Source of the DNA: Alphaproteobacteria bacterium
GTDB taxonomy: Bacteria; Pseudomonadota; Alphaproteobacteria; JAJTHO01; CANGYM01
Assembly (NCBI GenBank): GCA_044375675.1
Contig: JBILMD010000001.1
Location: 126,396-190,395, forward strand
Direction: 5' to 3'
Length of the DNA stretch: 64,000 bases
Part shown: one piece after another, positions 332 to 19,782 of the stretch
How positions within the stretch are numbered: position 1 is the stretch's first letter
Layout: the number at the start of each line of letters is the position of its first letter
Position numbers and translations under genes: made by a program
The notes under the pieces: generated by a model
Databases searched by the model: none
Told to the model about the DNA's origin: nothing
Seen by the model: only the letters and a program-made list of their open reading frames with translations

Positions 332-350
332 AACAGAACTTAACCTTAAC

Positions 351-1115: not shown

Positions 1116-1631
1116 ATGAAAATAAAAGATCGCGTCGAGTTCAAAAGCAAGCCCCCTGTCCTGTCTTTTGCTGAAACGGACAAAGTGATTGATGCCGTTA
1201 GGGCGATGTCAGAAAAAAACTACGGCGCAAGTGTTGTTGTGGATTCTGACAACAGGCCTGTTGGGATTGTGACAGAACGGGATTTCATGCGGCGACTCTT
1301 GGCCAAAGGGTTGGATGCCAACACAACCCCCTTGAGTGACATTATGACACGCGATCTAAAACTCGCATCCACAGAGGATACCGTGGTTGACTGGTTGCGC
1401 ATCATGTCAAACGAGCGTTTTCGTCACCTGCCCGTGATTGATGAGCAAGGTAAACTGATCAACCTGATGTCACAGGGTGATTTTGTTTCCTACACTTGGC
1501 CCCAACTTCTTAACCGCGCCAAAGAAACCCTCACCAAATCCTTTATGGAGCGTTTTCATCTCCATTTGATTTTGGCAGGGGTTATGATTTACAGCATTCT
1601 GGTCCTGATGATTGTTATGAATGCACAGTAA
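1116..1631 (+). CDS. CBS-domain protein with C-terminal hydrophobic segment
   Basis: Tandem CBS-like segments (GIVTERDF..., HLPVIDEQGKLINLMSQGDF) and a hydrophobic C-terminus. Confidence 0.65.
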   Translation: MKIKDRVEFKSKPPVLSFAETDKVIDAVRAMSEKNYGASVVVDSDNRPVGIVTERDFMRRLLAKGLDANTTPLSDIMTRDLKLASTEDTVVDWLRIMSNERFRHLPVIDEQGKLINLMSQGDFVSYTWPQLLNRAKETLTKSFMERFHLHLILAGVMIYSILVLMIVMNAQ

Positions 1632-1731
1632 CAAGGGTTCTTTAAAAATAAAATTTTCCAGCGTGATGGCTCCCACGCATGGACAAAAGAAGCTTGCTAA
1701 GACCTCTCAATGACCTCTCCACAATCCTCTG

Positions 1732-2202
1732 CTATACAAACACCACCTTAACCACCTCATACCCCTTAACCCCACCAGGGGCGGGGACTTCGATGTAATC
1801 GCCCACGGCTTTGCCCATCAGGGCGCGGGCGAGGGGGGCGGTGCTGGACAGGCGGCCTTGGGAAAGGTCTGCCTCTTCCATGCCCACAATGTGATAGGTG
1901 GTTTCTTTGCCGTCATCATCCGCCACCGTCACTGTGGCACCAAAGGTTACGGTATCGCCCGAAAGTTTTTTGGGATCCACGATTTCCGCGCGGCTGATTT
2001 TGCCCTCTAGGTCCTTAATCCGCGCCTCAATAAACCCCTGACGTTCGCGGGCGGCGTGGTATTCGGCGTTTTCTTTCAAATCGCCGTGCTCTTTGGCCTC
2101 GGCAATGGCGGCGATGACGGCGGGGCGCTCTTCGGTTTTCAGGGTGCGCAGCTCCACCTGCAATTTTTCATAACCCGGCAGGGTCATGGGGTATTTTTCC
2201 AT
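1732..2202 (-). CDS. greA: Transcription elongation factor GreA
   Basis: [13 protein letters not shown]...[24 protein letters not shown]...[10 protein letters not shown] matches the GreA N-terminal coiled coil and C-terminal FKBP-like domain from memory. Confidence 0.95.
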
Positions 2203-2219
2203 AACAAAGATTCCTTGTG

Positions 2220-3608
2220 TTAAAAATGAATAACACGACCCATGGCGTCCAGCGTGGCCTCGTGCATCATTTCCGATAACGTGGGGTGGGGGAATACGGT
2301 ATGCGCCAAATCCAGCTCTGTCAACTCCCCATTCATGGCAATGACAAAGCCCTGAATCAGCTCGGTGACTTCTGCCCCGATCAGGTGGGCCCCCAGCAAT
2401 TCACCCGTTTTGGCATCATAGATGGTTTTGATCAACCCTTCCGGCTCGCCCAGCGCAATGGCTTTGCCGTTGCCCATAAAGGGAAAACGGCCCACTTTCA
2501 ACGTATGGCCCGCCTCTTTGGCCTTGGCCTCGGACAGGCCCACACTGGCGACCTGCGGCATGGTATAGGTACATCCGGGAATTTTGGCGCGGTCCATGGG
2601 GTGAACATCGGGCTGGCCTGCCAGATTTTCCACACAAACCATGGCCTCGTGCGAAGCCTTGTGCGCCAACCACGGGCCCGCGGTGACATCCCCGATGGCG
2701 TAAACGCCGGCCTCGTCCGTTTTCAAATACCCGTCGGTGACGATGTGGCCCCGATCCAGACGAATTTTGGTTTTGTCCAAACCGATGGTTTCCGTGTTCG
2801 GCACAATGCCCACCGCCATAATGACGCGATCCACGGTCAGGGATTCTGTTTTTCCCGCTTTTTCAAAGGTCAGCGTGACATTATCCTTACCCTTATCCAA
2901 TTTGGTCAGCTTGGCGCCCACGTGGATGGTCATGCCCTGTTTTTCAAAGGTTTTTTTGGCCAGACCGGAAATCTCTGCATCCTCAGCCGGCAGGATACGG
3001 TCCATAGCCTCAATCACTGTAACCTTGGATCCCAAGGTGTTGTAAAAACTGGCAAACTCCATCCCAATGGCGCCGGATCCCACAATGGCGAGGGTTTTGG
3101 GCAGGGTGTCCTGAACCATGGCCTCGCGGTAGGTCAAAACCAATCGTCCATCCGGTTCAAACCCCGTCAACACGCGGGCCCGGGCGCCGGTGGCCAGAAT
3201 GATATGCTTCGCCGTGAGGGTTTGTTCTTTATCACCCTTCACCAAAACTTTTCCCCCGCCCAGCAGGGACCCATGGCCCGTGATGACCTCAACCTTATTT
3301 TTTTTCAGCAAATGGGCGATGCCGCCCGATAATTGTTTTGCCACGCCGCGGGATCGGGCCACGATGGCGGGCATATCAACCTTCACGTCGGCAACGCTCA
3401 GGCCGTAATCCTTGGCATGTTTGATGTGATGATACATTTCCGCGGAACGCAACAAAGCCTTCGTCGGGATGCACCCCCAGTTCAAACAAATGCCCCCCAG
3501 ATGGGTGGATTCCACCACCGCGGTTTTCAAACCCAGCTGATTGGCCCGAATGGCCGCCACATAGCCCCCCGGGCCACCCCCGATAACAATCACATCATAG
3601 TTACTCAT
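2220..3608 (-). CDS. lpdA: Dihydrolipoyl dehydrogenase (E3). True start taken at the internal Met that begins [16 protein letters not shown].
   Basis: FAD-binding GGGPGGY motif, redox-active [10 protein letters not shown] disulfide and HAHPT interface motif. ATG verified at 3608. Confidence 0.95.
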
Positions 3609-3682
3609 ACCATGCCTTTTCTTTTTGCGTGTTCGTGCCCCGTACCTTGCCACGGTTTTTCAGGGGAGGGAAGGGGGAACAA

Positions 3683-4036
3683 TCACTCTGATTTTCCTTG
3701 CAGCAAAACCTGTAGCTGTTCCAACAAAGCGGGGATGTGCAACAGAGCAACACTTAAAACAACCTCGTGGGCGATATCATCATAACCATGGGCCAGATGA
3801 TTCCTCATGCTGATGATTTTTTGCCAAGGAATTTGGGGATTTTGCTCTCTCAAGGGGGCACTGACGCGGGTGGCGGCTTCACCAAAAACATGAATTAAAC
3901 GTTGTAAAATCAATGCCGCATCAGAATCATCTTCAATACCATCCTTTCGGTAACGTTCCAATGTTTCCCCTATACGACGGCCAAAGCGGATCATATCATA
4001 CAGGGCGACGCGATCATCCCGCTGGCTTTCCCTCAT
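3683..4036 (-). CDS. hepT: HepT-like HEPN toxin (DUF86), pair 1
   Basis: R-x4-HxY HEPN motif (RNHLAHGY). Overlaps the upstream NTase gene by 4 nt. Confidence 0.8.
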   Translation of the reverse strand: MRESQRDDRVALYDMIRFGRRIGETLERYRKDGIEDDSDAALILQRLIHVFGEAATRVSAPLREQNPQIPWQKIISMRNHLAHGYDDIAHEVVLSVALLHIPALLEQLQVLLQGKSE

Positions 4037-4332
4037 AAAAACCGCACATCCTTCATAACATTTTCCTCTAAATAGGGGTTTTTGGCGATTTTTTGACGAA
4101 AAGAAAACCGCACAGGCAGGCCCGTCCGCAGGCTGAGGTCCTGCTCGGCATCCAAAAGATCAAAAAACGTAAACGGGGCGGTATAATCTATCAGGATATC
4201 CAAATCACTCCGCTCATCCGCATCGCCGCGGGCATAGCTGCCAAAGACGCCCATTTCTGTGATGGGGTATTTGGCCATCAAATCGCGTTTGGCGTCCTGC
4301 AAAATGGGCAAAAGGTCGTTGAGTGTTTTCAT
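4033..4332 (-). CDS. mntA: MntA-like minimal nucleotidyltransferase antitoxin, pair 1
   Basis: GS-x9-RG...D-x-D NTase fold motif (GVFGSYARGDADERSDLDIL). Confidence 0.8.
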   Translation of the reverse strand: MKTLNDLLPILQDAKRDLMAKYPITEMGVFGSYARGDADERSDLDILIDYTAPFTFFDLLDAEQDLSLRTGLPVRFSFRQKIAKNPYLEENVMKDVRFL

Positions 4333-4345
4333 GGGTATGCTGTTG

Positions 4346-4702
4346 TTACCAATTCAGGCCTTTGTCTTTCAAAAACATTTCTAATGCTGCAATCATGGGC
4401 GGCAGATGATCGATGACAATACGCCATACCAAAGGATTTTCAATTTCATCATAATCATGGGCAATCACGTTGCGGCATCCAATGATTTGAACCCACGGAA
4501 TATCCGGCAAGAGGGTTTTGGTTGGACCATCAACCTTTTTCGCCGCTTCACCAATAATTTGTACCGCGTGAAGCAAGGCAAATCGCCGAAGCTGATCTTC
4601 GAAATACGTGTCTTGTGTATACGGGGCAGCAAAACCCACCGCAGCGCGGGCATGATCCAACATATCCACCAGATATTGCGTGCTATCGTTCTGCCCCCTC
4701 AT
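4346..4702 (-). CDS. hepT: HepT-like HEPN toxin (DUF86), pair 2. Divergent from pair 1.
   Basis: RNVIAHDY HEPN motif. 4-nt overlap with the upstream NTase gene. Confidence 0.8.
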   Translation of the reverse strand: MRGQNDSTQYLVDMLDHARAAVGFAAPYTQDTYFEDQLRRFALLHAVQIIGEAAKKVDGPTKTLLPDIPWVQIIGCRNVIAHDYDEIENPLVWRIVIDHLPPMIAALEMFLKDKGLNW

Positions 4703-4998
4703 AAATAAACAGCCTCCTGCAAAATGCGGGGGGCCAGAAAGCGTTTTAGGCGGTTTTTGTTGACCAAATCCACGGTGGGAATGCCTGTTTTGTTCTGTAA
4801 ATACAGCTGAATATCCACGATATCAAACAGGGAAAAACCATGGGTATCCATCACATACAGAATATCCAAATCACTCCGCTCATCCGCATCACCGCGGGCG
4901 TAGCTGCCAAAGACGCCCATTTCTGTGATGGGGTATTTGGCCATCAAATCGCGTTTGGCGTCCTGCAAAATGGGCAAAAGGTCGTTGAGTGTTTTCAT
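4699..4998 (-). CDS. mntA: MntA-like nucleotidyltransferase antitoxin, pair 2. Start taken at the internal Met MKTLNDLL. The annotated N-terminal extension merely translates a repeat element.
   Basis: First 47 residues identical to pair-1 MntA, then divergent. NTase motif present. ATG verified at 4998. Confidence 0.75.
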   Translation of the reverse strand: MKTLNDLLPILQDAKRDLMAKYPITEMGVFGSYARGDADERSDLDILYVMDTHGFSLFDIVDIQLYLQNKTGIPTVDLVNKNRLKRFLAPRILQEAVYL

Positions 4999-5555
4999 GG
5001 GTATGCTGCTGACCAACCGTCCCCCAACTTTGCCACGGTTTGGGGGGGCAGGGAAGGGGATTTTTTCAACACAACCCTTTTTCGCCTCCACCCCAAAAAA
5101 ATTTCATAAAATTCTTGACGCATATATATATATATATTAAATTAAATGTTCACCCATAGCATTGCCACAATCCCGTGGATAAGATGCTTGGGCCTCACAA
5201 AGGTGAACCATGACCAACCGTCAACCGACGATGCCTGCCATAATCGCTCAGGCGATTTCCGGACAATTCGTTCGACTTCCCATCAAAATCAGAATTTTTC
5301 TGATTCTTGGCGGATCTGCAGCTTTGCTGCTTCCCCCAGCTTTGTATTTTAACAAAGCTATAATCCAATGGATGGCACCTATCGCCGAATCTCGACGTAT
5401 CTGCACCCAGAATGGGGGAAGAAACGCTATGGGACCAGATGAATTTCTCCATCCCCTATGGCTAAAATCTAGCGGATGGTGCAACTTCTCCAGCATCACT
5501 GGCCGCAATGCTGCGTGGGAATGGGATGTGAAAAACTGGAAGCCCTGAGACCACA

Positions 5556-5571
5556 CCCCCCCTCGGGGGGG
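5556..5571 (-). terminator. C7-TC-G7 perfect hairpin just downstream of the rpoB stop
   Basis: CCCCCCCTCGGGGGGG palindrome 30 nt past the rpoB stop. There is no clear U-run, so an intrinsic-terminator call is tentative. Confidence 0.3.
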
Positions 5572-5601
5572 TTACCCAGACCCCTACTCCTCGAGAGAAG
5601 A

Positions 5602-8600
5602 TTACTCTTCAAACGAGGGTAGGGGCTTTCTGGTTTCTTGGGCCTGCAGGTAATCGCTTTGTTTCAGCTCGATGTTCAATCCCAAGGCGCGGATTTCTTT
5701 GATCAATACGTTAAAGGACTCAGGGATACCGGTTTGGAACGTGGCATCGCCCTTGACGATGGATTCGTAAACCTTGGTCCGGCCGGCCACGTCGTCGGAT
5801 TTGATGGTCAGCATTTCCTGCAGAGTATAGGCGGCGCCGTAGGCTTGCAGGGCCCAGACCTCCATCTCCCCAAAACGCTGGCCCCCGAATTGGGCCTTTC
5901 CACCCAGCGGCTGCTGCGTCACCAAACTGTACGGCCCAATGGACCGCGCGTGAATTTTATCATCCACCAAATGGTGCAGTTTCAGCATGTACATATAGCC
6001 CACGGTTACGGGACGATCGAACCTTTCCCCCGTGCGGCCATCGTACAGCATCACCTGACCGGATCCATTCAGGCCCGCTTTTTCCAGCATCTCAACAATC
6101 TCGGCTTCTTTCGCGCCATCGAAAACCGGCGTGGCCATGGGCACACCCTTTTTCAGGTTGTGGCAGAGTTCCTTCAGGTCATCCCCATTCATGGCGTCGA
6201 TTTCGCCCTGCGTTTCGGTATCGGGGTACAGGGTTTTTAGGTGCGCTTTGACCTCTTTCTGCCCCTTGTCCTTATCCAGAGACGCAATCATCTGCGCCAC
6301 CTGACGGCCCAAACCGCCTGAGGCCCAGCTGAGGTGGGTTTCCAAAATCTGGCCCACGTTCATACGCGAGGGAACCCCCAGCGGGTTTAACACGATATCC
6401 ACCTGCGTGCCGTCCTCAAGAAACGGCATGTCCTCCAGCGGCATGATGCGGGACACAACCCCTTTGTTCCCGTGACGACCGGCCATTTTGTCCCCAGGTT
6501 GGATTTTGCGCTTCACGGCGACAAAGACCTTAATCATCTTCATCACGCCCGGTTGCAAATCATCCCCGCGCTGCAGTTTGTCGACCTTATCGTTAAATCT
6601 GGCGTTGATTTCGCGCAGGCTGGCTTCAAATTCCTGATTCAGGGTGGCGATGCGGTCCATGACCACGGCATCCTGAATCACAATTTTGGACCATTGGTTT
6701 TTGGGCATGGCATCCAGCGCGGCAGCATCCAAAGCCTGTCCGCGTTTGGCGCCTGTGGCTTTTTCCACAACCTGCCCCGCCAACCAAGAGGCCAGACGGT
6801 CATAATAGCTGGTTTCAATGATCCGGCGCTGCGTATCCCGCTCCCGCGCCAGGGCATCAATGCCGGCTTGCTCCAGCGCCACGGCCCGCTCGTCCTTGTC
6901 AATGCCGGTGCGGGAGAAAATCCGCACCTCAACCACCGTCCCCGTCACCCCGGGCGGCAGGCGCAGGGATGTGTCGCGCACATCGCTGGCTTTTTCCCCG
7001 AAAATGGATCGCAGCAGTTTTTCTTCGGGTGTGGATGGGGTTTCCGCCTTGGGCGTCACTTTTCCAACCAAGATATCCCCGGGCTTCACTTCCGCCCCGA
7101 CATACACAATACCGGCTTCATCCAGATTGCGCAGGGCCTCTTCGCCCACATCCGGAACATCGCGGGTGATGTCTTCCTGACCCAGCTTGGTATCGCGGGC
7201 CATGACCTCGAACTCTTCGATGTGAATGGATGTGAAAACATCATCGCGCACAATGCGCTCGGATAGCAGAATGGAATCCTCGAAGTTATACCCATTCCAC
7301 GGCATGAACGCACACAACACGTTGCGTCCCAAGGCCAATTCGCCCAAATCAGTGGACGGTCCATCGGCGATGATGTCACCTTTTTTGATGCCATCGCCCA
7401 CCTTCACCACCGGTTTCTGGTTGATGCAGGTGTCTTGGTTGGATCGCTGGAATTTCCGCAGGTTGTAGATGTCTACCCCAACGCCCGTGGCGCCGTCGTC
7501 TGTTTTCAAAACAATACGCTCTGCATCCACACGGTCCACGATCCCATCGCGGCGGGCCACAACAACCACACCGGAATCACGGGCCACAACGGCCTCCATG
7601 CCTGTCCCCACCAAGGGGGCCTCGGACCGCAGCAACGGCACGGCCTGACGCTGCATGTTGGATCCCATCAGGGCGCGGTTGGCATCGTCATTTTCCAAAA
7701 ACGGAATCAGCGACGCCGCCACAGACACCAGCTGCTTTGGTGAAACGTCAATGTAATCAATGTCTTCACGGCGGGCCAAAATGAACTCACCGGCTTTGCG
7801 GCAGGTGATCAGCTCGTCGGCAAAACCGCCCTGATCATTCAGGGCCGCGTTGGACTGGGCAATGGTGTAACGGCTTTCTTCCAGCGCCGACAGGTAATCC
7901 ACAACAAGGGATACCTTGCCGTCAATGACTTTGCGGTAAGGGCTTTCGATGAACCCATAGCGATTGATGCGCGAAAAGGTCGCCAAAGAGTTAATCAGAC
8001 CGATGTTCGGCCCCTCTGGCGTTTCAATGGGACAAATCCGGCCGTAATGGGTGGGGTGAACGTCCCGAACCTCGAACCACGCCCGCTCCCGCGTTAATCC
8101 ACCAGGGCCCAAGGCCGAAAGACGGCGTTTATGGGTAATTTCCGACAAAGGATTGGTCTGGTCCATAAACTGGGACAACTGCGAGGATCCAAAAAACTCC
8201 TTCACCGCCGCCACAACAGGCTTGGCATTCACCAGATCATGGGGCATGGCTGTTTCCAGCTCCACCGCGCCCATGCGCTCTTTAATGGCCCGCTCCATCC
8301 GCAGCAAACCCAAACGGTACTGATTTTCAATCAGCTCGCCCACCGAACGCACACGACGGTTGCCCAAATGGTCAATATCATCCACTTCGCCGCGGCCATC
8401 TTTCAGATTGATGATGGTGCGAACAATTTCAACAATATCCTCTTTCTCCAAAACCCGAACGGTGTCCGGCGCATTCAGACCCAAACGGGCATTCAGCTTC
8501 ACACGACCCACGGCGGAGAGATCATAGCGCTCTTCATCGAAAAACAGGCTGTTGAACAGGGCTTCTGCGGCCTCATATGTGGGGGGCTCGCCTGGGCGCA

Positions 8601-9792
8601 TGACGCGGTAAATGTCTGCCAACGCCTCTTCGCGGCAATAGTTTTTATCGGCCATCACCGTGTTCAAAATGTGGGGGCCATATTTAATATAGTCGATGTC
8701 CAGCAGGAAAAGGTCCTTGAGTCCTTTTTCGGCCACCAATTCCAACACAGAGGCATCCACCTCCTGACCCGCATCGGCCAGAACAATCCCCGTGTTTTCA
8801 TCAATGATATCCAGCGCCAGAAACCCACCGATCAATCCTTCTGGGCTGACGAAGATGGCGGAAAAGTTTTCCTTCTCCAGCTCTTTCATCAGGCGCGGCG
8901 TCATTTTGGTGCCGGCGGGCAGGCGAACTTCACCCGTTTTGGCGTCCACCAGATCATGAATCAACTTCACCCCGCGCCATTTTTCAGGCACGAAGGACGT
9001 CTGCCATCCGCCCTTGCAAACGGTGTAGTGCGTGTGGGTATAAAAGGTGTTAAGGATATCCAGCGCCGACAGTCCCTGCGCCTCGTAAGGCGCCAAAGGA
9101 CCCTGAGCCCGCTTTTTCGCCGTAGCTTCATTATCCAAACACATCAAAAACGTTGTCACCGGCAATTTACGGCGGCGATCAATACGCACATACAAAATGT
9201 CTTTGGCATCAAATTCAAAATCCAGCCACGACCCGCGGTAGGGGATCACACGGGCATTGTAAAGATATTTTCCCGACGCATGGGATTTCCCATTGTCATG
9301 ATCAAAAAACACACCAGGGGATCGGTGCATCTGCGACACAATCACCCGCTCGGTCCCGTTCACCACAAACGTCCCGTTTTCCGTCATCAGGGGAATGTCC
9401 CCGACGTAAACCTCTTGTTCCTTAATGTCGCGGATGGAGCGGACCCCTGTGTCCTCATCCAAATCCCACACCACCAGACGCAGAGTCAAACGCAGGGGGC
9501 ACGCAAAGGTAATCCCGCGCTGCTGACATTCCTCAACATCATATTTGGGCGCGTCAAAGTCATACGACACATATTCCAGCTGCGCCCGATTGGCATAATC
9601 CGCGATGGGAAAAATGGACTGAAACACCTCGTGCAGGCCGACCCGCAAACGCTCGGCGTGGGGAATATCCATCTGCAGAAAATGGGCACACGAATTCCGC
9701 TGCACCTCAATCAAGTTCGGCATGTCCACAACTTGGGGGATCTTTCCAAAACTCTTACGAAGACGTTTGCGCGAAGTGAACGAAGCAGCCAT
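5602..9792 (-). CDS. rpoB: DNA-directed RNA polymerase beta subunit
   Basis: 1396-aa product with N-terminus [19 protein letters not shown] and conserved RpoB blocks throughout. ATG at 9792 preferred over the GTG at 9804. Confidence 0.97.
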
Positions 9793-9962
9793 ACGGGTAA
9801 ACACTCTCTAAAAATCACAACAAAGAGGGAAGGGGGGACAGGCCCAAACAGATCCAAAAAAAGAAAAACGCATAGAACCCAAAGGGCACGCCTGTCAAAA
9901 CGATGATACGACACACGTTATGACACAGTCGCGCCCTTTGGGCAACACGTTTTAATGGCCGT

Positions 9963-10343
9963 CTACTTAATGTCGACTTTGGCGCCAGCGGCTTCGACTT
10001 TTTTCTTAATGTCTTCCGCTTCTTCTTTTTTCACGGCTTCCTTGATGGGCTTGGGGGCTGCTTCAACCAAGTCTTTGGCTTCTTTCAGACCCAGACCCGT
10101 GATGGCGCGAACTTCCTTGATCACGTTGATTTTGTTGTCACCGGCAGCGACCAAAATCACATCAAACTCTGTTTTTTCCTCAACGGCAGCAGCCTCGCCG
10201 CCACCAGCAGGGGCAGCCGCCACAGCCACAGGCGCGGCCGCAGACACACCCCATTCGTCTTCCAGTCTTTTGGCCAGCTCAGCAGCCTCCAGAACCGTCA
10301 AAGCGGAAAGATCTTTAATCAAAGCGTTCAATTTATCAGACAT
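9963..10343 (-). CDS. rplL: 50S ribosomal protein L7/L12
   Basis: [33 protein letters not shown]..., Ala-rich hinge, and a C-terminal domain ending [18 protein letters not shown]. Confidence 0.97.
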
Positions 10344-10376
10344 AAAAAACTCCTATAGATGGTCTGAGAGGGAAGG

Positions 10377-10886
10377 TTACTTTTTGCTGTAGGCTGACAA
10401 AAGCCGCGCCAGCTGCGCAGCCGGTGCCTGAACAACACCTGCAATTTTTGTGGCGGGGGCCTGAATCAGGCCGATCAACATACTCCGCAGAACATCCATG
10501 GACGGCAGCTTGGACAGGGTGCGCACATCCTCGGCGGACAACAAACGGCCATCCATAACAGCGCTGAGAACCTGAAGCTGGTCCGGAAATTTCTTTTCTT
10601 CATCCACCAGAACCTTGCACAGGCCAACGGGATCCTGACCCGTCACAACGGCGGTGCGGCCCACGAACGATGACGTTAAAACCTCGCACGCTGTTCCCTG
10701 AACGGCCAGACGATACAGGGTGTTTTTGGACACCTGCAGCGACCCACCAGCATCCCGCACGGCGCGACGCAGAGCCAAAGAATTGGCCACTTTATAATCG
10801 GTTTTTTTCACCACAATCACCATGGGGGCAGAAGACACAGCCTCTTTCACGGCGGCAATATAGGCAGGCTTTTCTGAACGTAACAT
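10377..10886 (-). CDS. rplJ: 50S ribosomal protein L10
   Basis: L10-like sequence beginning at the internal Met MLRSEKPAYIAAVKE (ATG verified at 10886). The upstream extension in the ORF track is probably untranslated leader. Confidence 0.9.
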   Translation of the reverse strand: MLRSEKPAYIAAVKEAVSSAPMVIVVKKTDYKVANSLALRRAVRDAGGSLQVSKNTLYRLAVQGTACEVLTSSFVGRTAVVTGQDPVGLCKVLVDEEKKFPDQLQVLSAVMDGRLLSAEDVRTLSKLPSMDVLRSMLIGLIQAPATKIAGVVQAPAAQLARLLSAYSKK

Positions 10887-11173
10887 AACTTTCCCCAAAC
10901 AAAACACGCACTTAAAAAAAGAAGCAGGGGAGGGGACAAAACCACAGCAAAGGCACCCAACAACGGGGCGCTTTTTAGGGGCTTTGATCAACATCTCGTG
11001 CGGGCTTTACGCTTTTAAACTTTTAAAAACACCAGCAGTCTGCAACGTTTTTTCAAAAACAGGAACGCTACATAGCACAGCGGGGCAGGGGAGCGCAAGG
11101 GGGTTTTTTACAATATTGAGAAAAAATGAGCGCTATCGTCCAGCAATGAAAAGGATGGGAAGTGTGATCATTT
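10887..11173 (-). promoter_or_regulatory. Candidate L10 autoregulatory leader / promoter region
   Basis: About 290 nt of untranslated sequence upstream of rplJ. A structured L10(L12)4-binding leader is expected here in bacteria generally. The structure itself was not verified. Confidence 0.3.
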
Positions 11174-12055
11174 TTAATTCAGGTTTGGGCTGCCTTTTTG
11201 GTCGCGAATATATTTGATGAATCCATATAAGTTTTCCGCATCTAGCCCATGCAACATTAAGCGAAACCCTGCTTCGAGCGTTGAAAATGGAACCATGGGG
11301 TGCTTGTTGTTCACGAGACCCATGATGAATTGCTTGTCCAACATCTTGGCGATATAGACAGCCATGGTTTCGTCCAACTGCAGAGAGTTGCTGGCACGTT
11401 CAAAGGCTTCGTTCGAAAGAAACACACCAAACAAGGGCGTATAAATTTCGATTGCGCTCTGTAGATCAAGAAAATTGTGCCATGTATCAGACAACGAGTC
11501 TATTTCCGAATCGAAATCATAAATCGCTGAAAAATCAATTTTATCAAGGGGAATAGGCTGGATAGATTTATTGTTCTTTTGCAAATAAGCACTGAGTTCT
11601 ATGATAAAATTATAAATGTTCAAATCGTGCTGAACAAACATGTTGTTTTTAAAGTCATCTATAATTCTCGGTTTTAAGGGATGGGATGTTAGCTGTCCCT
11701 CTGCAAGGTTATCATTCAAGAATCTAAGAATTTGGCTGCCTATATGAAAGTGGCGCATGATAAGATAATTTGCATCCTTGTTCACGAAATTTTTCATGCC
11801 CCATGCGATCAGGCAGTGTAATGTTTTGGGCGATGTTAATGCGTTGGGAATTAAAATACGCACTAGCCTGACTAAGGCGATAGACAAGCGTGCAAGTGGC
11901 CGAATGATCGGCAGAAGAAACGTGCGCGATCTTGTGCCGTTATTACGGAGCAGGGCTTCTTTTGCCGGTTGATCGAAAAAGGTGCTCTGATCCAAGGCCA
12001 AAGCCAACCAAGGATCGGGGTTGTTCAGGTCGTGAAGCTTGGCATCAAAAGACAT
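11174..12055 (-). CDS. Hypothetical protein of 293 aa, third gene of the KAS-III/HO-fold operon
   Basis: Long ORF, AT-richer than flanks. Its start overlaps the stop of the upstream gene (ATGA). No recognisable motif. Confidence 0.5.
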   Translation of the reverse strand: MSFDAKLHDLNNPDPWLALALDQSTFFDQPAKEALLRNNGTRSRTFLLPIIRPLARLSIALVRLVRILIPNALTSPKTLHCLIAWGMKNFVNKDANYLIMRHFHIGSQILRFLNDNLAEGQLTSHPLKPRIIDDFKNNMFVQHDLNIYNFIIELSAYLQKNNKSIQPIPLDKIDFSAIYDFDSEIDSLSDTWHNFLDLQSAIEIYTPLFGVFLSNEAFERASNSLQLDETMAVYIAKMLDKQFIMGLVNNKHPMVPFSTLEAGFRLMLHGLDAENLYGFIKYIRDQKGSPNLN

Positions 12056-12720
12056 TACGTGTTTCCCAACTCTTCCATTTGCAGCCTATACAGTCGAGCC
12101 GTGACTTTGGCGGTCTTGATAATATTTTTCCCCATATTCGGTATATCAAGAATACCTGATTGCAGCGTTTTGCTGAACTCTTCCATGTGCTCATCATCAT
12201 GCGCGGAATGATACGTAAGAAAAGCCACCTGTTTATCTTCAAGATTCAATTGCTCCTGAATACTTTTTCCCCACTGACCGGCTTTCTTCTGGCCCAGCCC
12301 TTCAATAATGAACATAGCACCTAACAGGCGAAAAGGATTTGGCTGGCTTGCATGCTGGTACATATAGGCATGTAGCGCCTCCGAACCTATGTTTTTTTCT
12401 GCGCCGCGAATTTCTTCAAGCGTGCCACCTAAAGAAATATAACTTTCTTCAAGCATGCGGTAATCTTTGTGTTCTGTAATCGCATGCTTTAAAAAAACCG
12501 AGCGTTGTTCGAGATATTCTTCATCAATACTGGAAGCGGCGCGAGCAATCCACCGCGAACCTTCTACAACCTGCTGACGGTGGTTGACCAGAAGCATTTT
12601 ATAATCCTCAAGCTGGAATTTCTTGCGGTTAATTTTATCAATCAAAGGGACCGTATCAAGGATTGTATCAAAATCAGTCCAGACCTTGAGCAGCCCGCGC
12701 ATTACTTCTTCACTTTTCAT
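12055..12720 (-). CDS. Heme-oxygenase-fold (TenA/PqqC/CADD-like) putative iron-containing redox enzyme
   Basis: About 220 aa with spaced E/H-rich helices (FLKHAITEHKDY, IIEGLGQKK, FLTYHSAHDDEHMEE), reminiscent of HO-like diiron enzymes and TenA. Family assignment is tentative. Confidence 0.5.
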   Translation of the reverse strand: MKSEEVMRGLLKVWTDFDTILDTVPLIDKINRKKFQLEDYKMLLVNHRQQVVEGSRWIARAASSIDEEYLEQRSVFLKHAITEHKDYRMLEESYISLGGTLEEIRGAEKNIGSEALHAYMYQHASQPNPFRLLGAMFIIEGLGQKKAGQWGKSIQEQLNLEDKQVAFLTYHSAHDDEHMEEFSKTLQSGILDIPNMGKNIIKTAKVTARLYRLQMEELGNT

Positions 12721-12734
12721 TACCTCACCTTTCG

Positions 12735-13859
12735 TTATACGACCTCTAGTAACATCAATCCGTTCAATCCTCGCCCGCTTTCTGGTACATGACAGAGAAT
12801 TTTCTCGCCTGATTTCAGCTTCCCGCTATAAAATAGCTCCTCAAGCATTATTAAGATAGAGGCCGTTCCTGTATTGCCCTTACTGTACAGGTTGCTGAAC
12901 CATTTTTCTTCATCTATCATTGCGCCGGCCTTTTTAAGCAACGCAATTGTTTCTTCACGCAGCGAGTGCGAGGAATAATGGCAGCATAAATGATCAATTT
13001 GGTCGAGCACAATTTTCTTTTGATCTATCAGATCTAAGTAATGAGAAATCCAGACAGGGATCATTCTTTTTAACAAATGAAAATCCTGCGCTAGGACAAA
13101 GGCACCTTCGGAAAAAGCCGCTGCGGGGCTGAGAAAACTGCTCCAAGGTTCAATCCTATCGTCAGTGCGGACACCGCCTGCTAGCATGCAGGTATCAAAT
13201 CTGTCGGCGTAAGAGCGTATGTCAATCCAGCATATTTTTAGAGATATATGGCGCGTGTTTGCCTTGCTGCCAAGCATCGCGGCCCCTGCACCATCAGACA
13301 AGGTAAACCGAAGAAAGTCTACTTCGTAAGGTAAATATCCAAGCTCTTTCACTTGTGCGGTATCTTCATAGAACCCCGGTCTGAAGTAGCGACTGGCGAA
13401 TTCGCTACCTGATACGGCGGCACAATCATGCTCGTTCGCTTTAATCTGTGTGTATACTGATTTTACAGCCATGAGAACACTGGCGCATACGCTTTGGAAG
13501 CTGGCGATTTCAATTGGGGGAAGCTTCAGATTCGCATGAACATGGGATGCCAAACCCGGCACCAGAACATCACCCAATGTTGCCGATGTGGCCAGATAAG
13601 TAATGTCATTTAGGTTAGCCTCTGATTTCCTCAGGGCTTCCTGTATGGCGATAGCAGCCATATCCGCGCTGCCGTATTGCTGAACTCCATTATCATCCAG
13701 CGCATAATAACGTGTTTTTATTTTATTTTGGCGCAAGGCGGTGCTACGGAAACGCGATGGCTTGCCGTGAATGCATCCCAGATAATTTTCCATTTGGCTA
13801 TTTGGTATGGGCTGGCCGGGCAGAAAAATGCCAAGACTGTTAATGAATACATCCCTCAT
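12735..13859 (-). CDS. 3-oxoacyl-ACP synthase III (FabH/KAS III)-like condensing enzyme
   Basis: FabH-like N-terminus, active-site Cys in SVCASVLMAV, His in HYSSHS, and Asn in GNTGTASI. Confidence 0.75.
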   Translation of the reverse strand: MRDVFINSLGIFLPGQPIPNSQMENYLGCIHGKPSRFRSTALRQNKIKTRYYALDDNGVQQYGSADMAAIAIQEALRKSEANLNDITYLATSATLGDVLVPGLASHVHANLKLPPIEIASFQSVCASVLMAVKSVYTQIKANEHDCAAVSGSEFASRYFRPGFYEDTAQVKELGYLPYEVDFLRFTLSDGAGAAMLGSKANTRHISLKICWIDIRSYADRFDTCMLAGGVRTDDRIEPWSSFLSPAAAFSEGAFVLAQDFHLLKRMIPVWISHYLDLIDQKKIVLDQIDHLCCHYSSHSLREETIALLKKAGAMIDEEKWFSNLYSKGNTGTASILIMLEELFYSGKLKSGEKILCHVPESGRGLNGLMLLEVV

Positions 13860-14010
13860 GAAAGCTCTTTTCGATTTTTTCGATTTTCAGAGAATCCGGC
13901 GATCAAATGTTACAAGCCTACTCAATTCTCAACTCTTTTTGAAGTGATTCCGTAAAGGTTAGAAACGTGGTTCCATAGAGGGGCTTGAAACTCTGTCGAA
14001 GGAGGCCTCT

Positions 14011-14637
14011 ATGGAACTGGAAAATCGTATCATCGCCATTTATCTGCGCATAGAAGAAATTTACAAAGACCTCACGGCCTTGCGCCCCAAACGCAAACGC
14101 GTCTTTAAAAAACACGCCAAACCCTGGCTGTACGGCATGAAACCCGCCGCCCCAGGCCACCTGATCCAAATCGACCATATGACTGTCAGAAAAAATGTCA
14201 TAACAATCAAACACTTCCAAATGTACGACCACGTCACCAAAACCATCCTCGCCGAGGTGTATAGCAACGCCACCAGCCGATCCGCAAAAAAATTTCTGCG
14301 TAAAATCAAAGAGGAACTCCCGTTTGCCATCGTGTCCATCCAGGTCGACGGCGGGTCCGAATTCATGGCCGAGTTCGAAGAAGACTGCCATGCCCTCGGC
14401 ATCGCTCTGTTCGTCCTGCCCCCCAAAAAACCCTAGTATAACGGGGGTGTCGAGCGCGGAAATCGCATCTTTAAAGAAGAATTCTACGCCAAAGCCGCCT
14501 ATGATTCCCTCGGACACTGCCGCGCCCTCCTCAAAACCGCCGTCCACAAATACAACACTTACCGCCCACATTATGCCTTGAAAGGATCCACACCCTCCGC
14601 GTATACAAAAACCATCCTCCTCAAGGACGCCGCTTGA
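14011..14637 (+). pseudogene. DDE (rve-type) transposase remnant: N-terminally truncated, with an in-frame amber stop at 14434-14436
   Basis: ...GHLIQIDHMTV...IQVDGGSEFMAEFEE...PKKP*YNGGVERGNRIFKEEFY...YRPHYAL. DDE integrase-core motifs split by TAG in the same frame. A GGAGG RBS lies upstream of the ATG at 14011. Confidence 0.7.
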
Positions 14638-14702
14638 TCACCATATCTGTCTCAAATGGGGTGAACTCATACACAAAAAAATCCTAGCATCCCCCCCAAA
14701 AT

Positions 14703-14751
14703 CTGTTACCTGTTACCTGTAATCTGTTACCTGTTACCTGTTACCTGTATG
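14703..14751 (+). repeat. Heptanucleotide tandem array (CTGTTAC)x7, two units degenerate. The last unit contains the argB ATG.
   Basis: ctgttac ctgttac ctgtaat ctgttac ctgttac ctgttac ctgtATG read directly from the sequence. Confidence 0.9.
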
Positions 14752-15666
14752 AAAGAAACCCACCCCCTGCGCGATGTGAACCCTGTGGCGGCCGCCAAGG
14801 CCAGCACGCTGTCCGATGCTTTGCCCTATATGCGCCAGTATGCGGGGCGCACCGTGGTCATTAAATTTGGCGGCCATGCCATGGGGGAGGAAAGCCTGAC
14901 CGAGGCCTTTGCCCGTGACATTGTCCTGATGAAACAGGTGGGCATGAACCCCGTGGTGGTCCACGGCGGCGGTCCCCAGATTGGCGCTATGTTAGAGCGT
15001 TTGAAAATCAAAAGTGAATACATTGACGGCCTGCGTGTCACCGATGCCGCCACGGTGGAGATCGTGGAAATGGTGCTGTGCGGATCCATCAACAAAAGCA
15101 TCGTCAGCGCCATCAACAGGGCAGGGGGCCACGCCGTGGGCCTGTCCGGCAAGGACGGCCAGTTGATTGAGGCCCGCAAGCTGCGCCATCGCCCCACACA
15201 AAAAACGGATTCCAACATTGAACGCCTGCTGGACTTGGGCTTTGTGGGGGAACCGACCTTTGTCAACCCCCACGTTCTGGACGTTCTGGCTGAATCCGAC
15301 ATCATTCCCGTCATTGCGCCCATTGGGATGGACCCAAACGGCCAGACCTATAACATCAACGCCGACACCGCCGCCGGTGCCATTGCTGAGGCCATGGAGG
15401 CCACGCGCCTGCTGCTGCTGACCGATGTGGTGGGGGTTTTGGACAAAGACAAAACCTTGCTGCCCAAAATCACCCTGAGCCAAGCCCAAAAAATGATCGA
15501 AAACGGCACCATCACCGGCGGCATGATTCCCAAAATCCAAACCTGCCTGCACACCATATCCCGCGGTGTCGGCGCGGCCGTCATCCTAGATGGCCGCATT
15601 CCCCACGCCCTGCTGCTGGAAACCTTCACCTCAGAAGGGGCTGGGACGATTATTATGGAGGGGTAG
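14749..15666 (+). CDS. argB: Acetylglutamate kinase
   Basis: [25 protein letters not shown]...[10 protein letters not shown]... matches the ArgB amino-acid-kinase fold from memory. Confidence 0.95.
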
Positions 15667-16137: not shown

Positions 16138-16531
16138 AGACACAAACCCCATAATGAAAAAAAACCATCTTAGGGGATTTTGACAGGGTGGCAAGGCAAA
16201 ACGTTGGGGCAAAAAGTAAAACCACAAAGACAACACTATAATATAGTCACAAGCTATTGTTTTTAAATAGTTTTTTTGAAAAAGTGTGCCATAAAAAGAA
16301 AGCGCTAACCTTAACAGGGTGGAACGCAGGTTTATATCGCGGGCATCCCCCCCACAGAGCCCCCAACCTCTTTTTCCCCAGTGTTCTCCACGCAAGCGAT
16401 TTGCCTTTCACTGTTGATACAGCACCCCACCAACCAACCCACGCCCCCCCCATTGGTTCATCGCACCGTACGTAGGCACGCCCCCCCCTGCTGCAGATTT
16501 CTTATTTGTCATAATATAGCTTATAGGACTT

Positions 16532-16927
16532 TTAGATGGGCTTGTTTTCGTGGGATTCCCAGTCCGTCACCAGCATATCCAAGTCCACATTCAATACTGT
16601 GGCCGCGCGGCACAAAACGGTAACCGAACCCCTTTTTTTTCCCGATTCGATTTCAGCCAAATAAGAACGAGAAATCCCCATACCCGCCGCCAGAACCCGC
16701 TGCGTCAGGCCCCGATGGGTCCGATACACCTTAACAGGCGATGCGCCGTCCACGATGCTTTTGATCAATGCGGCGGGGAAAAACTCTTCGTCTCGTTTTT
16801 TGGCATCATCATAAAGGGAAATGTCATCTACGTACTGCGCTTTTTCCAGTAATCTTTGGTAAAAATCCAATGGAATCAAAGCGTAAGGGCGTCCATTTTT
16901 TTGAATAATTTCATCGGTGATCATCAT
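16532..16927 (-). CDS. XRE-family HTH antitoxin (HigA-like)
   Basis: HTH_XRE segment LTQRVLAAGMGISRSYLAEIESGKKRGS. Its start overlaps the stop of the upstream RelE-like gene by 4 nt. Confidence 0.75.
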   Translation of the reverse strand: MMITDEIIQKNGRPYALIPLDFYQRLLEKAQYVDDISLYDDAKKRDEEFFPAALIKSIVDGASPVKVYRTHRGLTQRVLAAGMGISRSYLAEIESGKKRGSVTVLCRAATVLNVDLDMLVTDWESHENKPI

Positions 16928-17190
16928 TTATAAACGTCTCCTCTGGTATCCAGCTCCATAACCAAAATCAGGAGCTGTCCATCGTTAATCTCAAAAATCA
17001 CACGCCAATCCCCTACGCGCAAATGATACCCCTCTCGACCCACAAGTTTTTTTACACCACTGTGGGCGTAAGGATCCACCGCCATAGCCTCCAACTTTGA
17101 TACAATGCGATGCGCCAAAGACTTTGGTAAACGCATCAGACGCTTTTGAACGGTTTTGGAATAGGATAATTGATACATATAGCGTAGCAA
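16924..17190 (-). CDS. RelE/ParE-family toxin encoded upstream of its antitoxin (HigB-like arrangement)
   Basis: 88 aa. C-terminus YHLRVGDWRVIFEINDGQLLILVMELDTRGDVYK is typical of RelE/ParE. Confidence 0.8.
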   Translation of the reverse strand: MLRYMYQLSYSKTVQKRLMRLPKSLAHRIVSKLEAMAVDPYAHSGVKKLVGREGYHLRVGDWRVIFEINDGQLLILVMELDTRGDVYK

Positions 17191-17205
17191 ATAGCGACCA
17201 AAATG

Positions 17206-18297
17206 TCAAACATTAAACAAAAAATGCATCACATCCCCGTCTTGAACCCCGTATTCTTTGCCTTCGGTGCGGAGTTTTCCGGCGTCGCGGGCGGCGGCTT
17301 CTCCCTTACATAGTATATAGTCGTTATAGGCGATGGTTTCAGCGCGGATGAACCCTTTTTCAAAATCAGTGTGGATTTCACCGGCGGCCTGTGGGGCTTT
17401 GGCCCCGCGGCGCAGCGTCCATGCGCGGGCTTCCTTGGGCCCCACCGTAAAAAACGTCATTAACCCCAACAGGTCATAACTGGCGCGAATCAGACGGCTC
17501 AGGCCCGATTCTGACAGGCCCAACTCGGTTAGGAAAACGTCCTTTTCATCCTCGGGCAGCTGGGCGATTTCCGATTCAATGGCGGCGGCAATCATCACCA
17601 CCCCACTGCCCTGCCCTGTTGCAAAGTGTTGTACTTTTGTCACAAATGCGTTGCCGGTGGTGGCCTCGGCCTCCCCCACGTTGGCCACGTACAACACGGG
17701 TTTTCCTGTAATCATCTGTAAATCATGGAAAAAATTATGGGCTTTCAGGTCGTCTGGGATGGTGCGGGCGGGTTTGCCCTGCCCCAAAGCCACCAAAACG
17801 GCCGAGAGAACCGCCTCCGCCTCTTTGGCGTCCTTGTCCCCTGATTTGGCCAGTTTGGCGATTTTCACCTGATGTTTTTCGGCGCGTTCCAGATCGGACA
17901 GCATCAATTCCGTTTCGATGGTGTCGATATCCCGCAGGGGGTCCACCGATCCGTCAACGTGCGTCACATCGCCGTTTTCAAAACAGCGCACGACGTGGAT
18001 GATGGCGTCAACCTCCCGGATGTGGCTCAGGAATTGGTTGCCCAGCCCCTCCCCTTTGCTGGCGCCCTTCACCAGACCGGCGATGTCCACAAAGGTGATT
18101 TGCGTGGGAATCATTTTCTGGGACCCCGCCAGCTGGGCCAACGTCGCCAGCCGGCTGTCCGGCACACCCACTTTGCCCTGATTGGGCTCGATGGTGCAAA
18201 AGGGATAATTGGCCGCCTCCGCCGCCTGCGTTTGCGTTAAGGCATTAAAAAGCGTGGATTTTCCCACATTGGGCAGACCGACAATGCCGAGTTTCAT
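17206..18297 (-). CDS. ychF: Ribosome-binding ATPase YchF
   Basis: [22 protein letters not shown]-loop, and a C-terminal TGS-like domain ([16 protein letters not shown]). Confidence 0.95.
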
Positions 18298-18404: not shown

Positions 18405-18851
18405 ATGGATCAAAAACCCCGCTGGATCTATCGTTTTGACAATTACAAACGCGCTTTTGGCTTGCTGAGAGAGGCCATTGAAACCATGGACACACGGGAT
18501 TTGACCCAACTGGAAAAAGAGGGGGTCATCCAACGCTTTGAATACACATGGGAATTGGCGTGGAAAGTCCTGAAAGATTATCTGGAATACGAAGGGGTTT
18601 CCCTGGATAAAATCACCCCCGCATCCGTCATTCGCGCTGCCTTTGAGGCAAAAATCATCGCGCATGGGGAACACTGGATGCAGGCACTGGATGCCCGAAA
18701 CAAAATGTCCCATGTTTATGATATGAAAACATTTGACGATACGATTCGTGATATTCAAAAAACCTATTTAGCCCTGCTTGATGATTTGCATGTATCGATG
18801 TTGGACAATGCCCTCAAAAACCACCATGGTTTTGGGTCTGGCGATGCGTGA
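18405..18851 (+). CDS. HI0074-like nucleotidyltransferase substrate-binding HEPN protein
   Basis: Family signature RFEYTWELAWKVLKDYLEYEGV. ATG at 18405 preferred over 18324. Confidence 0.7.
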   Translation: MDQKPRWIYRFDNYKRAFGLLREAIETMDTRDLTQLEKEGVIQRFEYTWELAWKVLKDYLEYEGVSLDKITPASVIRAAFEAKIIAHGEHWMQALDARNKMSHVYDMKTFDDTIRDIQKTYLALLDDLHVSMLDNALKNHHGFGSGDA

Positions 18852-19164
18852 TCATGGCTTAACCCATCAGCAGTTGCACATTATCGGGGAAACGCTGCGT
18901 CCTTTTGCCGATAAAATCACCACTGTGGGTTTGTTTGGGTCTCGGGCCACGGGAACGTACCGCGACAATTCCGACATTGATTTGGTTTTATACGGCCCCC
19001 TAAGCGCAGCCGATATTGATCGCATTTACACACGTTTTGAAGACAGCGCGTTGCCCATCAAGGTGGACGTCGCTGCTTTTGATCTGATCGACCACCCGCC
19101 GTTAAAACAACACATCGCCGCGGTGATGCGGCCGTTGGAGGTTGGGGGGGGACAAATCCCTTGA
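18844..19164 (+). CDS. HI0073-like minimal nucleotidyltransferase
   Basis: GLFGSRATGTYRDNSDIDLVL NTase motif. 8-nt overlap (ATGCGTGA) with the HEPN gene. A G8 tract lies near the 3' end. Confidence 0.7.
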   Translation: MRDHGLTHQQLHIIGETLRPFADKITTVGLFGSRATGTYRDNSDIDLVLYGPLSAADIDRIYTRFEDSALPIKVDVAAFDLIDHPPLKQHIAAVMRPLEVGGGQIP

Positions 19165-19188
19165 CTGTGTGTAAAAATTGTATTATTT

Positions 19189-19782
19189 ATGGGTTTTTAT
19201 TTAGATGTGGTATCGAGGATTTCTATTATGGTTAAAAGACCTGACCTTGCTAAAAGCCTATTTGAAAATGGGGCCTTTCCCGAAAATCTTTACCCAGATT
19301 TGTACGTTACTACCTCTGAAGCGGAACTACTAAAAAAGATATACGATTTACAAGATGCTGCTTTTTTAGAACAAATTCGAATTCACACAAATACCCCCAA
19401 CACTGTCATAGATATCACCCTTCAAAAGTGTGGAGAATATGACGGAGCTGTGTATAAACTTGATTATCTATTATCTCAGGATAAAAACTTTGCAAACTCC
19501 ATAAAAACTATCGATCCTTTTCAAGCTAAAAGACTTATCGATGGTATCCAAAGCAGTAGTGACAAAGCAACAGATCTGTTACCGATTGGCGACTTAATCC
19601 ATTATGTTGTCACTATCCTAAGAACCCAAAGCACCGACCCAACCATACAAAGTCTTTTTGTACAAACAGCACATGACTGCGGAATGACCACTCAAAGTTT
19701 TGATGAATTTTTCAGAGCTAATCTCAACACCTACGTTACTAATGTCCAACAATCGCAAACCAACCCAGAACAAGGTGGGTAA
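19189..19782 (+). CDS. Hypothetical protein (AT-rich orphan)
   Basis: Long ORF with distinctly lower GC than its neighbours. No recognisable motif. Confidence 0.35.
   Translation: MGFYLDVVSRISIMVKRPDLAKSLFENGAFPENLYPDLYVTTSEAELLKKIYDLQDAAFLEQIRIHTNTPNTVIDITLQKCGEYDGAVYKLDYLLSQDKNFANSIKTIDPFQAKRLIDGIQSSSDKATDLLPIGDLIHYVVTILRTQSTDPTIQSLFVQTAHDCGMTTQSFDEFFRANLNTYVTNVQQSQTNPEQGG

Follow-up and report, generated by a model that had tools for sequence, protein, structure and literature searches.

A ketosynthase, a heme-oxygenase-like protein and DUF6999 form a conserved gene cassette with a probable role in fatty-acyl-derived metabolism

A cassette of three minus-strand genes, located at positions 11174 to 13859 of a 64,000-nucleotide stretch of an Alphaproteobacteria genome (assembly GCA_044375675.1, contig JBILMD010000001.1, positions 126,396 to 190,395; this whole stretch is hereafter the window), encodes a β-ketosynthase (KS) of the StlD/DarB type, a heme-oxygenase-like (HO-like) protein and a protein of the Pfam family DUF6999. 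The three proteins constitute one selected unit, in which the KS and the HO-like protein are physically coupled in many lineages, and there is good reason to believe that all of them act in a single biosynthetic pathway yielding a fatty-acyl-derived metabolite. Their nearest known chemistry is that of the cyclohexanediones and dialkylresorcinols, since the KS appears StlD/DarB-like rather than a generic FabH, and the cassette is a real variant of pathways of this type with an unprecedented oxidase pairing. A preliminary description of this DNA, made from the sequence alone, had pointed to fatty-acyl metabolite routes such as those to olefins and alkylquinolones; the fatty-acyl logic of that proposal stands, but the olefin and alkylquinolone routes are not the closest parallels.

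Distribution and conservation of the cassette

Relatives of DUF6999 are present in at least 267 species representatives from about seven phyla, as determined by a scan with two peptide patterns of one genome per GTDB species (approximately 185,000 representatives), a procedure that gives prevalences as lower bounds. The carriers include Micavibrio-like and other Alphaproteobacteria, Sneathiella, Aquisalinus, Microbulbifer, Saccharospirillum, Luteimonas and Porticoccus. They extend to Betaproteobacteria, the cyanobacterium Acaryochloris marina MBIC11017, Eremiobacterota, Acidobacteriota, a metagenome-assembled genome (MAG) of Cyclobacteriaceae and another labelled Nitrospirales, with the taxonomy of MAG carriers being that of the labels as deposited. 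In a protein collection clustered at 90%, DUF6999 has 2,571 homologues; identity to the window protein still exceeds 60% at rank 120, and the named matches are mostly from Alphaproteobacteria MAGs. The list of homologues of the HO-like protein behaves in the same way.

The genome-neighbourhood search that the preliminary description had suggested was carried out, and the trio proved to co-occur in many phyla: at 84 of the 86 fetched loci, the genes for the KS, the HO-like protein and DUF6999 lie in the same order on the same strand, and the other two loci end at a contig edge. Identities of the three proteins to their counterparts in the window co-vary pairwise (r = 0.95, 0.90 and 0.81; 77 loci). 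At 15 loci, from Acidobacteriota, Bacteroidota, and Alpha-, Beta- and Gammaproteobacteria, the KS and the HO-like protein form one continuous open reading frame (ORF). Such a fusion was confirmed by Pfam on a 595-amino acid JGI gene call at a distant locus (L087), and an ORF map of the cultured species Luteimonas salinisoli revealed another of 715 amino acids. The stop codon of the HO-like gene and the start codon of the DUF6999 gene overlap by 1, 4 or 8 nucleotides at most loci. The trio is kept at L087 and also in Pseudoalteromonas sp. THAF3, where DUF6999 identity has fallen to 28% and the PGAP names of the proteins are 'beta-ketoacyl-ACP synthase III', 'iron-containing redox enzyme family protein' and 'hypothetical protein'. 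The most distant DUF6999 protein examined (25% identity) is the sole member without KS and HO-like neighbours.

In the window, the three ORFs were recovered exactly where the preliminary description had placed them on the minus strand: the KS gene at 12735..13859 (374 amino acids), the HO-like gene at 12055..12720 (221 amino acids) and the DUF6999 gene at 11174..12055 (293 amino acids). The stop codon of the KS gene (TAA) is followed by a spacer of 14 nucleotides (12721..12734, minus strand), one fewer than first reported, which carries a Shine-Dalgarno-like run, AAGGTGAGG, ahead of the HO-like start. The stop of the HO-like gene and the start of the DUF6999 gene have a single base in common within a TAATG junction (12053..12057, minus strand), previously read as an ATGA overlap. 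Judged from this spacing, the cassette genes may be translationally coupled. Cultured carriers comprise A. marina MBIC11017, Microbulbifer, Luteimonas, Saccharospirillum, Sneathiella, Aquisalinus and Pseudoalteromonas sp. THAF3; given these and a cassette of only about 2.7 kb, the question of its product is open to heterologous expression.

The ketosynthase

The first gene product had been described as a KAS-III (FabH)-like protein. It is indeed a condensing enzyme (Pfam ACP_syn_III_C, 5.9e-10), but a generic FabH assignment does not hold: the FabH models of NCBIfam score 47–63 bits, whereas StlD/DarB is by far the best family, with 351.3 bits on the StlD/DarB model NF005293 (cutoff 450) and 309.7 bits on the DarB model NF053539 (cutoff 550), both under the respective cutoffs. 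The best match in the PDB is StlD of Photorhabdus (5gk0), which aligns over the full length of the protein with 38% identity (380 columns, 2.4e-69). The Cys/His/Asn triad that had been noted earlier is retained as Cys125 (CAS), His294 (HYSSHS) and Asn329 (GNTGTAS), in alignment with the StlD motifs CAAG, HYSSE and GNTGSAS. By sequence, the enzyme is thus classed as StlD/DarB-like. It is annotated as FabH by JGI.

Several stand-alone enzymes that join fatty acyl chains have a catalytic Glu 24–26 residues before the Cys, namely PpyS (E105/C129), NocG (E100/C125) and OleA (E117/C143). In a comparison made by spacing, the cassette KS carries Val100 at Cys125 minus 25; the acidic residue closest to this point is Asp97, likewise found in StlD.

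The heme-oxygenase-like protein

The second protein had been recognized as a putative diiron oxygenase of the HO fold, and the follow-up analysis agrees. It matches Pfam family PF14518 (Haem_oxygenas_2) with 38.9 bits against a gathering score of 28.9 (1e-9); a Pfam scan extended to E 0.1 returned this family alone and no match to TENA_THI-4. Precomputed annotation assigns the same family to almost all of 120 listed homologues. Its AlphaFold2 model (AF2; pLDDT 93.6) is most similar in Foldseek to 3dde, an uncharacterized HO-fold protein (TM-score 0.83–0.84), then to Chlamydia CADD (0.76–0.81) and to UndA (about 0.7); TenA and UndA structures rank beneath 3dde and CADD, and sequence identity to 3dde, CADD and UndA is just 13–21%. 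Seven residues (H79, E83, D86, E140, H171, D175 and H178) are invariant among 15 HO-like sequences with identities down to 30%. The spacing H171-x3-D175-x2-H178 is that of the core-helix-3 ligands of SznF (H311/D315/H318), and the candidate ligands of the first helix are arranged as H79-x3-E83-x2-D86. Assigned by position in the sequence, this set of three His and several carboxylates would form a putative dimetal site. Family, predicted fold and invariant ligands together identify the protein as a putative O2-dependent HO-like dimetal oxidase or oxygenase (HDO).

TenA, or thiaminase II, uses an active-site cysteine as its nucleophile. The 221 residues of the HO-like protein include no cysteine at all; together with the lack of a TENA_THI-4 match in the Pfam scan, the 3dde/CADD-like fold, the co-occurrence of the three genes and the fusion to the KS, this rules out a plain TenA thiaminase, an identity that the preliminary description had wished to see checked. 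Stand-alone HO-like proteins are often named '3-oxoacyl-[ACP] synthase-3' by JGI, which is probably a systematic mis-annotation arising by transfer from fused KS–HO proteins.

The DUF6999 protein

The third protein, which had been left unrecognized with the suggestion that it be checked for a housekeeping function, is not a housekeeping enzyme. It matches DUF6999 (PF22523) with 345.2 bits against a cutoff of 27, covering profile positions 1–271 of 275, and 27 of 27 diverse relatives match this family alone. No NCBIfam model, DarA included, matched either this protein or the HO-like protein. The predicted structure is confident and all-helical, and neither a sequence match (single sequence or profile) nor a fold match was found in the PDB. 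Seven residues are invariant (H102, P129, H143, D197, D228, H269 and E274), comprising three His and three carboxylates besides the Pro, and D144 directly follows H143. In most members of the family, no segment is more hydrophobic than a helix at about residues 46–68, which is conserved as an anchor-like element. Two possible affiliations were considered and rejected: a diverged member of the HO-like or ferritin-like proteins (probability of 0.1% in an hhalign comparison with the HO family), and an HD-domain protein as raised by the H...HD...D pattern (no HD match in Pfam and no HD fold).

It is conceivable, though held with appreciably less than even confidence, that DUF6999 is a membrane-anchored metal or dimetal enzyme whose fold is not represented in the PDB, and that together with the KS-coupled HDO it processes the product of a head-to-head fatty-acyl condensation into a new class of lipid metabolites in hundreds of mostly uncultured species. 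Were this so, two different helical enzymes, O2-activating or metal-dependent, would operate on one condensation product, and the makers of the new lipid class would include Micavibrio-like predatory Alphaproteobacteria, Eremiobacterota and Acaryochloris. The cassette provides a function-linked context for a family of more than 2,500 clusters that is without annotation, structure or literature.

Comparison with characterized systems

The KS has its nearest relative (StlD, 38% identity) in the DarABC and StlCDE systems of Pseudomonas, Chitinophaga and Photorhabdus, which produce dialkylresorcinols, cyclohexanediones and stilbenes. As described in passages of two reviews, DarB, StlD and BrtD combine a 3-oxoacyl and a 2-enoyl thioester through Michael addition and Claisen condensation into a carboxy-cyclohexanedione (PMC6836626; PMC10088813). 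Aromatization of the ring with loss of CO2 is assigned to DarA, StlC and BrtC in passages of the same reviews and of a preprint (PMC6836626; PMC10088813; bioRxiv 10.1101/2022.10.20.513026). Like these systems, the cassette is a small operon that would use fatty-acid-derived thioesters. Unlike them, it has neither a DarA/StlC aromatase nor a DarC/StlE acyl carrier protein (ACP) gene at any of 84 loci, and the KS is accompanied by an HDO and DUF6999, both of which are absent from dar and stl clusters. The absence of the aromatase refers to genes beside the trio, the whole genomes not having been scanned with a DarA profile.

DarB and BrtD draw on primary metabolism, and BrtD uses acyl-ACPs derived from fatty-acid synthesis without a dedicated ACP, according to passages of both reviews (PMC6836626; PMC10088813). 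The bartoloside (brt) cluster resembles the cassette in lacking a dedicated ACP gene, as the 2019 review mentions in part (PMC6836626). The cassette, like BrtD, would thus have to recruit intermediates of fatty-acid synthesis, those of BrtD being long-chain; unlike the cassette, the brt cluster has a DarA aromatase (BrtC), glycosyltransferases and halogenases.

DarB homologues without DarA have been recorded previously. [quoted passage not shown] This clade corresponds to the copy of the cassette in A. marina (L054). The passages concerned contain no description of its HDO and DUF6999 partners, its cross-phylum spread or its KS–HDO fusions (PMC6836626; PMC10088813), and no account of the KS–HDO–DUF6999 trio, its fusions or its spread was found in the literature. 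The literature hence knows only the KS, as an orphan DarA-less DarB, and the third component is new in fold and function. The cassette supplies a concrete genomic definition for the orphans flagged in 2019 and 2023, with a reach far beyond cyanobacteria.

Like UndA/BesC, CADD and 3dde, the cassette HDO has the HO-like fold with a set of three His and carboxylates and the H-x3-D-x2-H motif. It has a lipid substrate context in common with UndA, an HDO that performs the oxidative decarboxylation of a fatty acid (PMC7848743). What sets it apart is a ketosynthase partner, to which it is often fused; no such arrangement was found for any characterized HDO. Both DarB-type ketosynthases and HO-like diiron enzymes are active fields of study, and no described pathway that couples them was found. 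Like PpyS/PyrS, NocG and OleA, the KS is a stand-alone thiolase-fold enzyme predicted to join two fatty acyl chains without elongation. It differs from them in clade, in having no obvious Glu about 25 residues before the Cys and in context, with NocG occurring beside a fatty-acyl-AMP ligase (FAAL) and an ACP, and OleA beside OleBCD. Three described systems were rejected as counterparts: the listianol biosynthetic gene cluster (DarA, DarB and a polyketide synthase; different architecture), nocuolin NocG (different KS clade, FAAL/ACP context) and Acinetobacter baumannii DtpC (unrelated HDO, in an operon with katE).

Proposed pathway and alternatives

The explanation that best accounts for these findings joins the shared pathway to a specific chemistry and, taken as a whole, is judged to have somewhat better than an even chance. 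The cassette would be a conserved, self-contained and occasionally mobile module that converts intermediates of fatty-acid synthesis into an oxidized, membrane-associated, lipid-like metabolite. First, by homology, the KS would join two acyl thioesters head to head, to give a carboxy-cyclohexanedione-type intermediate. Its substrates would probably be 3-oxoacyl and 2-enoyl chains taken straight from primary fatty-acid synthesis, as the module has no ACP or activating enzyme: no ACP-sized ORF lies in or abuts the cassette in the window, no small neighbour recurs at the other loci, and no acyl-activating enzyme is conserved with the trio. Secondly, the HDO would take over this intermediate and oxidize it with O2, most likely in an oxidative decarboxylation or desaturation in the manner of UndA and BesC that aromatizes the ring in place of the absent DarA/StlC. 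The coupling of the KS and the HO-like protein is strongly supported by gene fusion, and the fusions at 15 loci suggest that the intermediate is handed over directly. Thirdly, and more speculatively, DUF6999 could be a second metal-dependent enzyme that tailors or releases the product at the membrane. The particular cyclohexanedione-to-resorcinol chemistry is tentative, and considerably more doubtful than the existence of a shared pathway.

Several points weigh against this explanation. The KS scores lie below the curated StlD/DarB cutoffs (351 versus 450, and 310 versus 550), and the 2019 review remarks in the passage cited that the DarA-less DarB clades are more distant and may not form carboxy-cyclohexanediones (PMC6836626). 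The carrier genomes may have a DarA homologue at some other place. No HDO is known to aromatize a cyclohexanedione. Position 53 of the HO-like protein is Glu or Asp in the main clade, as opposed to Gln or Met in the fused clade, and given this variation the HDO could be of either the N-oxygenase-like or the desaturase-like subclass. The putative metal site of DUF6999 is proposed from residue composition.

The strongest rival, to which a slightly lower probability is assigned than to the resorcinol chemistry, keeps the module intact and changes the carbon skeleton. The KS would catalyse a non-decarboxylative Claisen condensation like that of PpyS, NocG or OleA, giving a 2-alkyl-3-ketoacid, a ketone or an α-pyrone; the HDO would decarboxylate, desaturate or hydroxylate the chain (yielding, for example, an olefin or a hydroxy-ketone), and DUF6999 would tailor the product. 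This possibility is kept alive by the sub-threshold family scores and by the suspicion voiced in the 2019 review that the DarA-less clades have other reactivity (PMC6836626), as cited in part above; furthermore, the related stand-alone ketosynthases NocG and PpyS perform such condensations, and UndA-type HDOs act on carboxylates. Against it, the KS is far nearer to StlD/DarB (351 bits, 38% identity) than to the other models tested, and, judged by spacing, the place of the Glu in NocG, PpyS and OleA is taken by Val100, close to an Asp97 that StlD shares.

A further alternative concerns the role of the product and is compatible with the cyclohexanedione-type explanation. In place of signalling or antibiosis, the cassette would serve the cell envelope by making or remodelling a membrane lipid, for example an antioxidant lipid of resorcinolic or quinol-like type, a quasi-core function kept in groups such as the Micavibrio-like Alphaproteobacteria. 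Identities of 60–80% across hundreds of clusters within Alphaproteobacteria, GC contents ameliorated to the host in most genomes, the membrane-anchor-like helix of DUF6999 and the operonic lipid enzymes at some loci (Aas, desaturase and fatty-acid hydroxylase) fit such a role. It is likewise favoured by the neighbourhoods: regulators, exporters or other transporters, and resistance genes are not conserved alongside the trio, and candidates of these kinds reach about 9 of 69 loci at the most. A patchy occurrence across phyla (267 of approximately 185,000 species representatives, by the two peptide patterns), insertion sequence (IS) elements beside the cassette here and in Luteimonas, and identities of 63–68% in the MAG labelled Nitrospirales instead suggest an accessory, horizontally exchanged trait, and an envelope function is accordingly considered improbable.

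The notion that the three genes are unrelated neighbours (a TenA thiamin-salvage enzyme or CADD-type p-aminobenzoate synthase, a spare FabH and a chance or decaying ORF) could appeal to the high rank of CADD and lower rank of TenA among the fold matches, to the JGI annotation of the KS and to nudB, a folate-pathway gene two genes upstream of the cassette at one locus, but it is refuted by the fixed-order co-occurrence and the fusions, is further contradicted by the missing TENA_THI-4 match and cysteine, the low FabH scores and the strong conservation of DUF6999 (345 bits, 2,571 homologues), and has a negligible likelihood.

Neighbouring genes at other loci

The genes flanking the cassette differ wholly between lineages, and among the neighbours at 84 loci there is no universally conserved fourth gene. 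Some loci have same-strand genes within 4 nucleotides of the cassette; these encode an alpha/beta-hydrolase with thioesterase/LCAT-like matches, a fatty-acid desaturase, a cytochrome P450 or an Aas-like protein, the last combining major facilitator superfamily, acyltransferase and acyl-ACP-synthetase parts. Genes of the FA_hydroxylase family and for FabG-type short-chain dehydrogenases/reductases (SDR) also recur near the cassette on the same strand. The recurrent same-strand neighbours are thus lipid-handling or lipid-oxidizing enzymes. An OmpR-type response regulator, identified by eye, is found downstream of DUF6999 at eight loci (L009, L011, L021, L024, L025, L028, L039 and L075), which could reflect either lineage synteny or a regulatory link.

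Composition and mobility

The KS, HO-like and DUF6999 genes have GC contents of 0.46, 0.44 and 0.42, compared with 0.527 for the window, and their GC at third codon positions (0.45–0.50) is below that of rplJ and rpoB (0.60–0.66), bearing out the earlier remark that the cassette is lower in GC than the flanking genes. Other patches with a GC content of 0.42–0.46 occur at 18500–19500, 25000–26000 and 28000–29500, and the cassette is therefore not the sole deviant segment. Across 67 loci, cassette GC tracks that of the host over a range of 33–71%, with a mean difference of -0.007, and the offset of -0.08 in the window is among the largest seen. This match to the hosts indicates that most genomes have carried the gene set for a long time. 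Only contigs of the same species (L001–L003) have the cassette next to rplJ, argB and an IS481 fragment, an arrangement found at none of the other loci; in the closest other species (73–80% identity), the cassette lies between an alpha/beta-hydrolase gene and an Aas-like gene in a background of 43% GC. The GC offset, the IS481 fragment and the lineage-specific position make it plausible that the cassette was relocated or acquired in this lineage. The 'horizontally acquired island' of the preliminary description therefore has support in this genome, but does not describe the cassette overall, which is an old and widespread module with host-like GC.

In L. salinisoli (L069), an intact ISL3-family transposase gene (7025–8245) lies about 170 nucleotides downstream of DUF6999. 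Carriage by phages was rejected, as no relative was present in IMG/VR, and so was plasmid carriage as the norm, the only instances being an 801-kb replicon of Pseudoalteromonas and a decayed fragment in Nostoc. The latter, on plasmid pNFSY08 of Nostoc flagelliforme CCNUN1 (L092, approximately 6001–6456), is a partial DUF6999-like stretch with 36% identity over query residues 3–153. No coding sequence is annotated for it, and a cytochrome P450 gene is situated about 2.7 kb upstream; the stretch may be the decayed remainder of a cassette carried by a conjugative megaplasmid. An anti-phage defence system was also considered and rejected, since none of the three proteins had a match in PADLOC.

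Genomic surroundings in the window

On one side of the cassette lie rplJ, rplL and rpoB and on the other argB, in agreement with the preliminary description as regards rplJ and argB, as gene calls on identical contigs confirm. That description also placed a decayed DDE transposase nearby; this proves to be an IS481-family fragment between the cassette and argB (14011..14436, plus strand; NCBIfam, 3.2e-15), which covers only profile positions 109–226 of 284. Opposite to it, the public annotation has a gene of 217 amino acids (13918..14571, minus strand) with no Pfam or family match, which is probably a spurious antisense ORF, given the homology to an IS481 transposase on the other strand. A weak terminator-like hairpin about 90 nucleotides past the DUF6999 stop (11066..11082, minus strand) is a low-confidence candidate for the end of the operon, proposed by a consensus scan. 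A promoter scan of the cassette region gave nothing above shuffled expectation, and no Rfam elements were found in 9800–15000.

The ribosomal-protein cluster had been called truncated, and rplK and rplA are indeed missing upstream of rplJ; however, rpoC is not downstream of rpoB either, so the ribosomal and RNA polymerase cluster is split rather than simply truncated. As no further ORF of more than 800 amino acids exists in the window, rpoB and rpoC are considered unlinked, which is unusual for bacteria, and the same break is seen in the identical contigs L002 and L003 (surroundings of rpoB: window 1–5600 and 5602–9804). Downstream of rpoB are two tandem nucleotidyltransferase/HEPN toxin–antitoxin pairs, read by eye, the first at 4699..5091 with 4346..4702 and the second at 4033..4332 with 3683..4036. 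A stretch of 47 residues is identical in both nucleotidyltransferase ORFs and is N-terminal in the shorter one. These pairs are followed by lpdA-, greA-, CBS- and SDR-like genes. Further along the window, the interval between ychF and mscL (16140–17206) contains a RelE/ParE-type toxin gene (16924..17190) and a gene for a helix-turn-helix (HTH) antitoxin (16532..16927), again read by eye. Nothing else is present in this interval, whereas the same position in the otherwise identical contig L001 (1568–4323) is occupied by about 3 kb of other genes (glyoxalase, HTH, GNAT, TPM phosphatase and LemA), and the ychF–mscL interval looks like a spot of strain-level variation.

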